Notes: a model not told the origin generated them from the sequence alone. A stretch of DNA of 64,000 nt from Escherichia coli (GCF_044324875.1 NZ_CP172185.1); one strand, 5' to 3'. Numbered from the stretch's first letter, positions 56,280 to 59,820 are shown. Program-made: numbers and translations.

Positions 56280-56330
56280 CCCACAAAAATGCTTTTCCGT
56301 TCCTCTTTAATAAATTGTGCAACTGGTTAA

Positions 56331-56999
56331 CTACCAGTTGCCATAGGGATATTTTTTATCTTTGATAAACTCAAGTACATATTCATCGTCTCCAAGAGAA
56401 AAATCATGCCGGGAAATTCCTTTACACATTTCCATTTTTTCACCTGAAACCGTTTCTATCAGAATCTGCTTATCCGTCAGGCGAATATTGGGCTTGTCAG
56501 GTTTCTCCAGCCATACGCGTACTTTTCCTTCTGGAGCCAGACCGATTAACAGATACCGCAGATAATACTTTTCACTGCCACCGCCTGGTGGTGAATAAGG
56601 TGTGAGCATCAATTTCCAGACGTCTCCCGCCAGCGTTATCCAGGTTTCATACACTTTTTTATCAATCACTGAATCCCAGCAGAAATGGATAGACATAGGG
56701 GGATTTTTGGCTTTATTGAATGATAACACCCCAACCCGAAGATTATCTCTCCACTGACCAATAGTAGTGGAACTCGGAGCGGTAGCATCCAGCGTTCTGA
56801 ACTGATAATAGATACCATCAGTGTCCAATAGTTCTACATAGGTAACTTGTGCTGGTAGCGCATTAGGGTAGAAAAAAAGGAAATACCATTCATCATAGGG
56901 TGCAAGCAGTGATATTTTTTCTTTCGCTGCTGTCTGGACTGATCCGGCTATCATTAACGCAATGGTTAATCTATAAATTATTTTAGCTGTTATTTTCAT
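56331..56999 (-). CDS. Putative periplasmic immunity protein, paralog 2 (orphan immunity candidate)
   Basis: 222 aa with Sec signal peptide (MKITAKIIYRLTIALMIAGSVQTAAKEK); C-terminal half nearly identical to the upstream paralog; sits 3' of the Tle1-like effector. Confidence 0.65.
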   Translation of the reverse strand: MKITAKIIYRLTIALMIAGSVQTAAKEKISLLAPYDEWYFLFFYPNALPAQVTYVELLDTDGIYYQFRTLDATAPSSTTIGQWRDNLRVGVLSFNKAKNPPMSIHFCWDSVIDKKVYETWITLAGDVWKLMLTPYSPPGGGSEKYYLRYLLIGLAPEGKVRVWLEKPDKPNIRLTDKQILIETVSGEKMEMCKGISRHDFSLGDDEYVLEFIKDKKYPYGNW

Positions 57000-57005
57000 T
57001 GTTAC

Positions 57006-57665
57006 TTACCAGTTACCATAGGGATATTTTTTATCTTTGATAAACTCAAGAACATATTCATCGTCTCCAAGAGAAAAATCATGCCGGGAAATTCCTTTAC
57101 ACATTTCCATTTTTTCACCTGAAACCGTTTCTATCAGAATCTGCTTATCCGTCAGGCGAATATTGGGTTTGTCACGTTTATTAAGCCATACCCGTACTTT
57201 TCCTTCCGGAGCCAGCCCGATTAACAGAAACCGCAGATAATACTTTTCACTGCCACCGCATGGTGGTGAATAAGGTGTGAGCATCAATTTCCAGACGTCT
57301 CCCGCCAGTGTTATCCAGGTTTCATACACTTTTTTATCAATCACTGAATCCCAGCAAAAATGGATAGACATTGGTGGGTTTTTGGCTTTATTAAAAACTG
57401 ACGACATCCCTGATACTTTCTCGCTCCATTGTCCAACACTTCCTGGACTGGCATTGGTACTGGCCAGCGTTCTGAACTGATAATAGATGCCATCGGTATC
57501 TAATAATTCCACATAGGTAACTTGTGCTGGTAGGGAATCAGGGTAGAAAAAATTGAAATACCACTCATCATAGGGTGCAAGCAACAATATTTTTTCTTTC
57601 GCTGCTGCGTTAAAGTTAAGAACCATAGACGTAATAACAAACAGTAATTTTATATTAAATTCCAT
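57006..57665 (-). CDS. Putative periplasmic immunity protein, paralog 1 (likely cognate to the adjacent Tle1-like effector)
   Basis: Start at internal ATG 57665 (MEFNIKLLFVITSMVLNFNAAAKEK, signal peptide); this start overlaps the effector stop as ATGGAATTTAA; about 219 aa. Confidence 0.7.
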   Translation of the reverse strand: MEFNIKLLFVITSMVLNFNAAAKEKILLLAPYDEWYFNFFYPDSLPAQVTYVELLDTDGIYYQFRTLASTNASPGSVGQWSEKVSGMSSVFNKAKNPPMSIHFCWDSVIDKKVYETWITLAGDVWKLMLTPYSPPCGGSEKYYLRFLLIGLAPEGKVRVWLNKRDKPNIRLTDKQILIETVSGEKMEMCKGISRHDFSLGDDEYVLEFIKDKKYPYGNW

Positions 57666-59658
57666 TTTGTTTATTCCCTTGCATATCGTATATAGTTCTG
57701 GTCCAATTTTCATCCGGCCGATTAACAAAACTAAACGTCTTAAACGCTGATACTTCAGCAGACACCTTATTTTTTAATCGATAATCGACGGTATTCCAGT
57801 TGGAAGAACAGTGTAAATATTTCCCAATGGTTTTAAGCTCATCATCAGAAAAAGGCATCGGCGCTGTACACAAGAGAACGGCTTTACCCTGAGAAATTGC
57901 TTTTTCACATATTACCTTTAAATGACTGGGAACTTTTAATTCCTTATCAGCAACAGAAATGGCATCAAATACTACCCCTGCCTCTTTAGCGACTTCATAC
58001 ATTACTCTTAACGCAATCTTTGACCAGTCATTGGTGATCGTTCTGCGAAATGTCACCGCTGCAGCGACCCGTTTTCTCACATTACCTAAGTGGTCAGGCG
58101 ACGCTATTTCATCAATATTGGATTCAATTTTTAGGACACCAGAAGGCAGAATCGGAGCCAGCGTCGAATAGCGCCACAATAACTCTGCCTGCTGTACTGC
58201 TTTTTGGTAAGCGCTTGTCGCTTCCATCGGCACATTTCCCAGTACCGTTTCAATCGCCGGGCGACTTAAAAACAGGTACTCATCTTCCTGTGGGTCATAA
58301 CCGCCACCAATATCAGCATGTGATCCAGGGAAACTTAATTCTGGCCAGCTTTCCTTTATGCTGTTGAGGCAAAAGTTATAGCGACATTCGTTCATTGCTG
58401 TGAGCTGGAATACATGTTTGGCCACACCTGGCGGTAACTTCACTTTTACCGGAAAGTTATTACCATCATGAGGGTCAAAACCATCCATCAGCCCTCCGAT
58501 GGCTGCAACTGTGTCAAAAATACCTAAAAATTGCACTTCCCCGGAAGGTTTACCTAAATATTCAACTGACTGAAATGCCGTCGCAATGGTTTTAATCAGT
58601 ACGGGATCACGTTCAAATACGCGATTAGTAAAGTGCCGTGCGGCTGCCGCCCCACGACTAAAGCCAAATACGTCAAACTGTAGACGCTTAATTACTAGTT
58701 TAGCATCCTTTAAATCAACAATAATCTCTGCCAGTGTCTCACGAAGCAGTGATATCGCACGGTCAGTTTTGGCAATTACCCCAGTATCATTATTTCCTAG
58801 CCCCATTCCTACCAGAGAGTCTGCTTTATTATTTTCAGTGCCAATACCTTCAATATATATTTTTTCCTGAATATTAAATACATCATCATCTAAAACTAAT
58901 TGCCGATGATACAACTCATTCAACCAATGAATATTCGTATAGTAATTCAAATAGCTCTGTACTCCGGATCCCGTTTTACCCTGCTTGCTCATACATTGTT
59001 TATTAAACGAGGCCAAATCCTGGACATCCAGACCATAGGTTTCTGGTTGGCAAAAACTCATACGTAAATTCGTATTGGTTAAATTGTTTCCTGTGCCATC
59101 AAAGAATACGCCAATGGTGAGGATAATTTCTCGTTCAGGCGGTATTTCTGGTTTTTCCTCAACAGGTAAGAGCGTCGGTGGGAAAAGGCGATTATAATTT
59201 TCAGGTGTGAGTAAATAACTAAATTCTGTATTGGCTGTAAGATGCTTACAGTAGATATATTTGTAGTGTATTGTTATATATTGATAGTCGAGTTCATTTT
59301 CTTTTATTATAATCTGATTCTGAGTTAACGTTGCACCGCGGACTTCAATATAATAATAACTTTCCCATTTCCCATATTTATTAATACGATAAAAATCAAA
59401 CTCAAAACGGCATCGTTCGTTATTATTAATGCAATTCATCAGCAGCGGTGAGCTTTTATCGAGAATTTTACAAAATTGTATCGCTTGATGATTAATGCCA
59501 AATCCTGTATTACTCACTCCTCCCTGAAAACTAAAAACAAATATTTCATCTTCATGTCCCTGTTGATACCGATTCCCGACAGAGGCTTGCGTCCCGCATC
59601 CTGCAGAAATATTACCTTGTTGCTCCCCTGTAATGCGTAAATATATAATGTCACCCAT
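57655..59658 (-). CDS. Hcp-domain / DUF2235 (Tle1-like phospholipase) fusion protein, a putative T6SS Hcp-linked effector, 667 aa
   Basis: N-terminal ~155 aa match the Hcp/TssD family (IYLRITGEQQGNISAGCGTQASVGNRYQQGHEDEIFV..., KSSPLL motif). A Pro-rich linker (PPTLLPVEEKPEIPPERE) follows, then DUF2235 hallmarks: FFDGTGNN, nucleophile elbow GFSRGA, FDTVAA and HADIGGGY. Confidence 0.85.
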   Translation of the reverse strand: MGDIIYLRITGEQQGNISAGCGTQASVGNRYQQGHEDEIFVFSFQGGVSNTGFGINHQAIQFCKILDKSSPLLMNCINNNERCRFEFDFYRINKYGKWESYYYIEVRGATLTQNQIIIKENELDYQYITIHYKYIYCKHLTANTEFSYLLTPENYNRLFPPTLLPVEEKPEIPPEREIILTIGVFFDGTGNNLTNTNLRMSFCQPETYGLDVQDLASFNKQCMSKQGKTGSGVQSYLNYYTNIHWLNELYHRQLVLDDDVFNIQEKIYIEGIGTENNKADSLVGMGLGNNDTGVIAKTDRAISLLRETLAEIIVDLKDAKLVIKRLQFDVFGFSRGAAAARHFTNRVFERDPVLIKTIATAFQSVEYLGKPSGEVQFLGIFDTVAAIGGLMDGFDPHDGNNFPVKVKLPPGVAKHVFQLTAMNECRYNFCLNSIKESWPELSFPGSHADIGGGYDPQEDEYLFLSRPAIETVLGNVPMEATSAYQKAVQQAELLWRYSTLAPILPSGVLKIESNIDEIASPDHLGNVRKRVAAAVTFRRTITNDWSKIALRVMYEVAKEAGVVFDAISVADKELKVPSHLKVICEKAISQGKAVLLCTAPMPFSDDELKTIGKYLHCSSNWNTVDYRLKNKVSAEVSAFKTFSFVNRPDENWTRTIYDMQGNKQNGI

Positions 59659-59783
59659 ATGATTACACCCATTCCATAGATTTTAATTATATAATATAAA
59701 CTTAATAAACATCTCATTTGGCAATGTATATTAATTATATGTTTGGGCATAACAATTTTTTAATTACGTGATGCACTAATAAT

Positions 59784-59820
59784 AAAGCCGTTTATCTACC
59801 AGGTAGAAATAAACGGCTTT
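59784..59820 (-). terminator. Rho-independent terminator of the ybbA-ybbP operon
   Basis: Long palindrome AAAGCCGTTTAT-CTACCAGGTAG-ATAAACGGCTTT immediately 3' of the ybbP stop, followed on the reverse strand by a T-rich tract. Confidence 0.7.

Follow-up and report, generated by a model that had tools for sequence, protein, structure and literature searches.

The Hcp-ET2/ETi2 class of type VI secretion system (T6SS) effector–immunity pairs, known to us through reviews, is reportedly due to Ma et al. 2017 (Virulence 8:1189). Hcp-ET proteins are widespread in Enterobacteriaceae, and Hcp-ET2, in which Hcp is joined to DUF2235, has been tested in E. coli with its partner ETi2 as a T6SS-delivered antibacterial Tle1 phospholipase (PMC6730261, PMC6099711, PMC8262886). 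In enteroaggregative E. coli (EAEC), Tle1 is a periplasm-acting PLA1/PLA2 phospholipase that is neutralised by Tli1 (PMC9860674), an immunity protein belonging to the DUF2931 family (bioRxiv 10.1101/2024.03.05.583533). In this study, we analysed a 64,000-nucleotide stretch of Escherichia coli DNA (GCF_044324875.1, NZ_CP172185.1), hereafter the window, in which an insert of about 3.5 kb between the core genes selU and ybbP carries a gene for an Hcp–Tle1 fusion, hcp-ET2, followed by two DUF2931 immunity genes. Judged by the descriptions of the class in reviews, this island is an Hcp-ET2/ETi2 effector–immunity cassette of the kind already described, and we consider it very likely that it functions as an orphan T6SS effector–immunity operon.

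The toxin is encoded by a single 2,004-nt open reading frame (ORF) of 667 codons. Its N-terminal part matched the T6SS_HCP family (PF05638, aa 6–138, E = 5.8e-13) and the NCBIfam TssD/Hcp model TIGR03344 (125 bits against a cut-off of 58.9, profile positions 1–163 of 167), and aa 369–460 matched the Tle1-like/DUF2235 family (PF09994, E = 9.6e-11). The Pfam match covers only part of the Tle1 body; aa 173–661 aligned continuously to residues 30–541 of the 560 residues of EAEC Tle1 (PDB 6SJL/6SKI, E = 1.4e-127). The sequence FFDGTGNN begins at aa 185, the nucleophile lies in the motif G332-F-S334-R-G336 (S334 codon, 58657–58659), the aspartate in F-D382-T-V (codon 58513–58515) and the histidine in H447-A-D-I-G-G-G-Y (codon 58318–58320). 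The Ser334/Asp382/His447 triad is intact and aligned with the equivalent motifs of 6SJL, and the GxSxG, FDT and HxDIGGGY motifs were invariant in an alignment of 13 homologs with 46–95% identity. The 667-aa protein is accordingly a predicted phospholipase A1/A2, because of its close match to EAEC Tle1. Thus, one ORF contains an N-terminal Hcp domain and a DUF2235/Tle1 extension of more than 60 aa, and immunity genes lie directly downstream, as in Hcp-ET2.

The distal downstream ORF, of 222 codons, matched DUF2931 (PF11153, E = 5.2e-26), and the proximal paralog shared 79% identity with it. Counted from its ATG, the proximal gene shares 11 nt with the 3' end of hcp-ET2, an overlap suggestive of translational coupling; starting instead from the TTG at 57728 would probably make the ORF too long. 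A 6-nt gap separates the two immunity genes, and since all three genes overlap or abut, they look like one operon. Signal peptides were read from the sequence, with no dedicated predictor, as MEFNIKLLFVITSMVLNFNAAA|KEK for the proximal and MKITAKIIYRLTIALMIAGSVQTAA|KEK for the distal protein; both N-termini have a basic n-region, a hydrophobic h-region and an A-A/A-A-A (AxA-type) cleavage context before KEK. Neither paralog has a lipobox cysteine, or any cysteine among its first 30 residues, and the outer-membrane lipoprotein anchoring of the EAEC Tli1 kind was found in neither, so both are predicted to be soluble periplasmic proteins. A PDB sequence search with the immunity protein returned nothing meaningful. 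An earlier reading made from the nucleotides by themselves (the sequence-only reading) had proposed an Hcp-fused Tle1-like phospholipase and two signal-peptide immunity paralogs here, and the family matches, the 6SJL alignment, the 79% identity and the signal sequences at both N-termini agree with it on both counts. As a separate observation, the third or distal DUF2931 copy in AVS0710 (2250–2873), in an ST131 (sequence type 131) isolate (432–1055) and in FDAARGOS_144 (432–1055) is annotated by the NCBI annotation pipeline PGAP from an internal methionine (MIAGSVQTAAKEK...), which leaves a mere signal-peptide stub; either the start is mis-called or that copy is not exported.

Seven E. coli alleles were compared. 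The results showed that the toxin ORF was intact in all seven and 92.5–99.9% identical to the window protein, with a dN/dS of about 0.25–0.4 on small counts, and that its variation was concentrated in two swapped patches (aa 252–266 and aa 566–611). The immunity genes were mosaics of two variable modules, VR1 (types a, b and c) and VR2 (types x and y), in combinations that differ between copies and strains; the window and AF40, the closest complete genome (99.7% identity in the island, 98.4% over 25 kb), both carry a+x and b+x. Between one and three immunity gene copies were present among E. coli carriers. This is the pattern to be expected if tandem copies undergo unequal crossing-over or gene conversion, and the mosaicism would fit a diversification of toxin–immunity specificity. 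In this small sample of seven alleles, the effector patches did not co-vary with the types of immunity module by any simple rule.

Compared with the Hcp-ET2/ETi2 pairs described in E. coli, the locus showed no difference in kind: Hcp is fused to DUF2235/Tle1, the cognate immunity lies next to it, and the cassette is chromosomal and away from the T6SS cluster, with the particularity that the immunity paralogs of the window allele number two and share VR2 type x. The likeness to EAEC Tle1–Tli1 (EC042_4534/4535) extends over nearly the whole Tle1 chain, the same GxSxG, Asp and His residues and a DUF2931 immunity protein. However, EAEC Tle1 is a separate cargo carried on the TTR extension of VgrG1 in the T6SS-1 cluster, whereas the Tle1 of the window is covalently fused to Hcp in a cassette that, in AF40, lies about 300 kb from any T6SS. 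Hcp-ET1, 3, 4 and 5 (HNH-DNase, pyocin S3, a colicin DNase and a peptidase of the papain-like kind) likewise bear a toxin covalently on the tube protein, with immunity genes directly downstream and sometimes duplicated, but they differ in toxin domain and target, Hcp-ET2 being directed at membrane lipids in the periplasm and not at nucleic acids in the cytoplasm. NCBI already contained sequences identical to all three window proteins, the toxin on 189 contigs and the immunity proteins as "DUF2931 family protein"; PGAP names the three genes "Hcp family T6SS effector/TssD" and "DUF2931 family protein", and an 8,004-bp stretch around the cassette was 100% identical to the draft assembly GCA_050232825.1.

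Table 1. Features of the selU–ybbP interval, with positions counted from the first nucleotide of the window.
Feature	Position	Strand	Basis or remark
selU/mnmH (tRNA 2-selenouridine synthase), left core flank	55173..56279	+	ORF; PGAP name in AF40
Insert-derived selU tail, last 7 codons and stop	56256-56279	+	Translation QTYACGY*; replaces K-12 ...EWV-KAR*
Terminator-like hairpin, operon 3' end; overlaps the distal immunity stop codon	56319..56341	-	Consensus scan: 9-bp stem with 5 GC pairs, then ACAATTTATT; pattern match only
Distal DUF2931 (Tli1/ETi2-type) immunity paralog, 222 aa, mosaic VR1-b / VR2-x	56331..56999	-	PF11153, allele comparison
Proximal DUF2931 immunity paralog, 219 aa, mosaic VR1-a / VR2-x	57006..57665	-	Start is the ATG annotated by PGAP in AF40 and relatives
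hcp-ET2, single 2,004-nt ORF, 667 aa	57655-59658	-	ORF listing
Tle1 phospholipase domain (predicted), aa 173-667 of Hcp-ET2	57655..59142	-	PDB 6SJL/6SKI match, PF09994
N-terminal Hcp (TssD) tube-protein domain, aa 1-~150, and Pro-rich linker, aa ~150-172 (NRLFPPTLLPVEEKPEIPPERE)	59143..59658	-	PF05638, TIGR03344, linker sequence
Candidate sigma-70-like promoter, TTAAAA-18-TATAAT, within the 168-bp AT-rich spacer that precedes hcp-ET2	59734..59763	-	Consensus scan; pattern match only
ybbP-proximal segment that includes half of a hairpin	59786..59826	-	AAAGCCGTTTAT-CTACCAGGTAG-AAATAAACGGCTTT spans 59786-59820
ybbP (putative ABC transporter permease), right core flank	59827..62241	-	ORF; PGAP annotation in AF40

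The three collinear minus-strand ORFs fill the selU–ybbP interval (Table 1), and ybbP, in the same orientation, lies upstream of them. The insert (56256–59785) has a GC content of 39.5%, compared with 50.1% and 56.2% in its flanks, and is below the lowest value (42.8%) found in 214 other 3.5-kb segments (mean 51.4, sd 3.3). On the left, the alignment to K-12 breaks after GAATGGGTT, at about 56255, within the final selU codons; SelU is 368 aa long in all island carriers examined and 364 aa in K-12, and the selU junction was identical across these carriers. On the right, homology to the "empty-site" strain APEC E19035, in which 58 bp separate the two core genes, resumes at 59786. The 35 bp next to ybbP are common to the two, and this ybbP-proximal segment, shared by "empty-site" strains and absent from K-12, marks the right edge of the island; K-12 homology resumes only at about 59821, beside the ybbP stop codon. 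Island carriers matched a 301-bp empty-site query from query position 134 onwards. The AT-rich insert of about 3.5 kb that the sequence-only reading had placed at 56280–59785 was therefore borne out in composition, and its coordinates proved essentially exact, with K-12 homology ending at about 56255 and empty-site homology resuming at 59786.

None of the marks of an integrase-mobilised genomic island was detected. The island contains no integrase or transposase and only the three cassette ORFs, the repeat search gave no flanking direct or inverted repeats beyond chance-level short matches, and the nearest tRNA gene is 34 kb off, so that no tRNA target adjoins the island. The sole repeat found was internal, a 675-bp tandem duplication (56326–57000 against 57001–57675) that corresponds to the two immunity genes. 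With no integrase, tRNA or flanking repeats, the probable route by which the cassette spreads is homologous recombination within the core genes on either side. No RNA family was found in the island by Rfam, and the promoter and terminator consensus matches were at or below the shuffle expectation, which makes them candidates only. Elsewhere, the 64-kb window consists of ordinary core sequence, comprising ybdK, pheP, cusCFBA/RS, nfrBA, argU, the sfm fimbriae, purEK and the allantoin regulon.

The occupants of the junction were counted in 5,426 complete E. coli genomes, using 450-bp queries over the ybbP end of each allele together with the 301-bp empty-site query. An RhsD-type junction was found in 2,878 genomes, a dinQ-like cassette of about 720 bp with REP sequences in 1,285, an empty or short junction in 783 and the Hcp-ET2 junction in 571 (569 by the whole-island query); the classes overlap slightly, their sum being 5,517 against 5,426 genomes. 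An independent spread sample of 60 genomes gave proportions that agree with the census. The Hcp-ET2 cassette is therefore present in about one in ten complete E. coli genomes. Its carriers include ST131 and many extraintestinal clinical isolates, as well as environmental and animal commensal isolates, and they mostly have three DUF2931 copies, some one, compared with two in the window. Two match places per genome record had raised the possibility of a second cassette locus, but these most likely reflect an off-diagonal match between the tandem immunity genes and not a second copy.

In K-12, the interval between ybbP and selU contains rhsD-ybbC-ylbH-ybbD-ylbI-ylbG, and BLAST detected no sequence homology between this insert and that of the window. 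K-12 RhsD, with DUF6531 and RHS repeats (its PAAR match was weak and partial, E = 0.11), resembles the window cassette in occupying the selU–ybbP slot as an orphan polymorphic toxin with a downstream immunity-type gene followed by remnants. It differs in that the protein family and the toxin are unrelated and the insert measures 7.3 kb against 3.5 kb; an RHS-repeat core with a C-terminal toxin is not found in the window island, whose three ORFs belong to other families. K-12 is also reported to be without T6SS genes (PMC6730261). These findings uphold the further claims of the sequence-only reading that K-12 has RhsD at this position, that the insert is not core sequence conserved there, and that alternative toxin cassettes occupy the site in different lineages, for which the census and the sampled loci both speak. 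The cassette of about 720 bp, as seen in E. coli 266917_2 (17268–17979), is annotated by PGAP as "damage-inducible type I toxin DinQ" and contains REP-like repeats and twin terminator hairpins; filling the slot in about 24% of complete E. coli genomes, it represents a third, unrelated kind of toxin there.

More than 3,000 database proteins matched the 667-aa protein at E ≤ 1e-10, and the best 120 matches mostly had the same 660–667-aa architecture (Salmonella, Atlantibacter, Kluyvera, Enterobacter, Lelliottia, Cedecea, Trabulsiella and others). Fused homologs with 45–70% identity were found in at least ten enterobacterial genera, always followed by one or two DUF2931 genes. In Salmonella enterica subsp. 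houtenae, a 61%-identical Hcp–Tle1 gene with one DUF2931 gene lies between ybbP, next to which stands a porin-like gene, and selU. The module of Pseudocitrobacter faecalis, with 60% identity, is located 4.5 kb from ybbP, from which a porin-like gene and a metNIQ-like transporter separate it; the locus retrieved did not extend to selU. A 68–70%-identical module with two DUF2931 genes was found between ybfA and phr in Salmonella enterica, including subsp. arizonae, and in K-12 this same place is the RhsC site. Across this handful of loci, two of the five K-12 Rhs sites thus correspond to places that hold Hcp-ET2 in other genomes, a coincidence that is suggestive of shared toxin-exchange slots. 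At both junctions, unrelated cassettes (Rhs and Hcp-fused Tle1) may have replaced each other repeatedly. That selU–ybbP and ybfA–phr are ancient, integrase-free exchange sites for interbacterial-toxin cassettes, conserved across genera, is a tentative proposal that we regard as rather doubtful at present; if it were true as an undescribed rule, both junctions would be predictable places for mining new effector–immunity pairs.

Two further observations were made at these loci. In one Salmonella enterica lineage, the fusion at ybfA–phr (9656–11650) is split into ORFs of 74 and 549 aa, with the Hcp part disrupted and two DUF2931 genes intact; the 549-aa product occurs in 124 indexed collection blocks, and the arrangement looks like a decaying toxin with its immunity retained. 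Between ybbP and the Hcp-ET2 module of houtenae (8451–9584) and Pseudocitrobacter (3895–5034), there is a gene for a 377–379-aa protein with a signal peptide, a C-terminal ...RLRYDF and the look of a porin-type beta-barrel, with no Pfam match on record; the E. coli site is without it.

No T6SS structural or core gene and no vgrG was found in the 64-kb window, again as the sequence-only reading had it. The fusion gene therefore has no VgrG neighbour that could carry it as cargo in the manner of the EAEC and P. aeruginosa effectors, and delivery through the Hcp fusion itself is implied instead. In AF40, a T6SS cluster is present at aspV, with tssA-C, E-H, J-M, tagH, vasI, two hcp genes and vgrG-Rhs. 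In this cluster (10176–10894 and 10860–12270), the last genes are the second, small hcp gene (159 aa) and, after it, a truncated hypothetical gene and a gene for an LprI-family lysozyme inhibitor. In ST131, T6SS-1 is the sole T6SS and is intact in clades A and B, whereas in clade C/H30 its tssM is split by ISEc12 and there is no second tssM (PMC10711316). The carriers of the cassette thus probably include strains with and without a working apparatus, so that both the serviced and the stranded situation should occur in nature. The fused homologs examined in other genera were all orphan bicistrons or tricistrons, with no VgrG or T6SS core gene detected within 8–10 kb of them, while the unfused Tle1 genes of Xenorhabdus and Sodalis adjoin vgrG. 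For Hcp–Tle1 fusions as a class, orphan placement is therefore the rule, and the window strain is no special case in this respect.

What the window itself shows is how the domains are arranged, that the catalytic motifs are intact, how the operon is laid out and that the immunity proteins carry export signals; the mode of action proposed for the toxin is drawn from close homologs and the family rather than from this strain. In this proposal, the 667-aa protein would be built into, or would cap, the Hcp tube of a T6SS encoded elsewhere by means of its N-terminal Hcp domain, and contraction of the sheath would fire the fusion into a neighbouring Gram-negative cell. The Tle1 domain, an alpha/beta-hydrolase with phospholipase A1/A2 activity predicted from its Ser334-Asp382-His447 triad, would then hydrolyse membrane phospholipids from the periplasmic side. 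In the producer, the two DUF2931 proteins would be exported to the periplasm, where they would bind and block the Tle1 domains arriving from sister cells, and a probable benefit of the duplicated, recombining immunity copies is protection against a wider range of toxin alleles.

Several points weigh against this proposal. A Tle1 domain of about 55 kDa, once folded, exceeds the size of the Hcp lumen, and the loading of such a fusion is a difficulty for the proposal. Delivery in the window strain would have to proceed without T6SS genes in the 64-kb window. The AF40 cluster looks full, but its VasL-domain gene is annotated as frameshifted, which makes the activity of this T6SS uncertain; furthermore, the two Hcp proteins encoded there share only 35% and 28% identity with the Hcp domain of the fusion, which makes compatibility with a particular T6SS uncertain. 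EAEC Tli1 is an outer-membrane lipoprotein, whereas the window paralogs have plain signal peptides. The class itself was recognised by its description in reviews and not by sequence comparison with the PE321 protein (A31K_02346) that was tested.

Another explanation is that the cassette is stranded and kept mainly for defence: no compatible T6SS of this genome would fire the fusion, the DUF2931 genes would act as orphan or "cheater" immunity that shields the cell when neighbours attack with Hcp-ET2 or Tle1, and the toxin would be carried along or slowly decay. This would accord with the lack of T6SS genes in the window, with an immunity gene set of one to three copies that are diversified mosaics, and with the ybfA–phr fusion of one Salmonella lineage, broken in its Hcp part next to two intact DUF2931 genes. 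The cassette is also carried by ST131 isolates, not assigned to clade here, and the tssM of clade C/H30 is disrupted (PMC10711316). However, a useless toxin would be expected to decay, and the toxin ORF was full length with its triad intact in all seven E. coli alleles, with dN/dS below 1; moreover, the closest complete relative has a T6SS cluster. We therefore consider a mainly defensive role unlikely, although it is the alternative to be taken most seriously. That the effector serves virulence or protection from grazing and is aimed mainly at eukaryotic cells, of a host or otherwise, appears improbable. With EAEC Tle1, lysis of about 50% of RAW264.7 macrophages was seen in vitro, and the Tle families are regarded as trans-kingdom effectors (PMC9860674), and many carriers of the cassette are extraintestinal clinical isolates, but environmental and animal commensal isolates carry it as well, reviews assign Hcp-ET2 to interbacterial antagonism (PMC6730261, PMC6099711), and periplasmic immunity genes tightly coupled to the toxin gene are a hallmark of antibacterial effectors.

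It is hardly conceivable that the fusion was produced artificially by annotation or assembly, or that it is a pseudogene made by joining two genes. The restriction of the Pfam Tle1 match to aa 369–460 and the existence of some database entries that are partial DUF2235 fragments could be read in this way. Nevertheless, the PDB alignment is continuous over aa 173–661, the 2,004-nt ORF is found in 571 complete genomes, the 660–667-aa architecture recurs in many genera at 45–70% identity, and an identical 8-kb locus is present in independent assemblies. A single ORF conserved across genera refutes the artefact explanation, and an orphan antibacterial Hcp-ET2/ETi2 operon is the interpretation we retain.

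The value of the locus as a discovery is small, given that the class was defined and, as the reviews have it, tested in 2017, the toxin domain has a close homolog of solved structure, the genes are named by PGAP and the sequences are public. What is added here is the number of selU–ybbP occupants over the 5,426 complete genomes and the finding that Hcp-ET2 and Rhs share two slots across Escherichia and Salmonella, with a ybbP-adjacent cassette in Pseudocitrobacter, which could guide effector mining. Only two points are mildly novel, namely that slots are shared with Rhs elements across genera and that the immunity genes are modular mosaics. In practical terms, the cassette can mark a strain's repertoire for interbacterial competition, also in clinically important carriers such as ST131, and ST131 clade C, with its sole T6SS inactivated, offers a natural test of whether orphan modules are kept for offence or for defence.

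Minor observations were made elsewhere in the window. The argU gene (tRNA-Arg UCU, 21767–21843) adjoins an envY-like AraC regulator gene (20960–21721), with nfrA/nfrB and cus beyond, and ompT appears to be absent from this stretch. No prophage is integrated at argU in the window, while AF40 has a lambdoid prophage with intD there and K-12 carries DLP12 at this tRNA gene. IS1397 lies between ybcF and purK in AF40 (4089–5565) and is absent from the corresponding place in the window (35091–35126), and the window is otherwise collinear with AF40 from 21765 to 64000. A match to the enterobacterial small RNA STnc480 (Rfam RF02068, 85 bits) was found on the minus strand at 43242–43308, in the allantoin gene region. 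At the start of the window, on the minus strand at 159–315, a match to the sok antitoxin RNA (Rfam RF01794, 80 bits) indicates a chromosomal hok/sok-type type I toxin–antitoxin locus beside ybdK.

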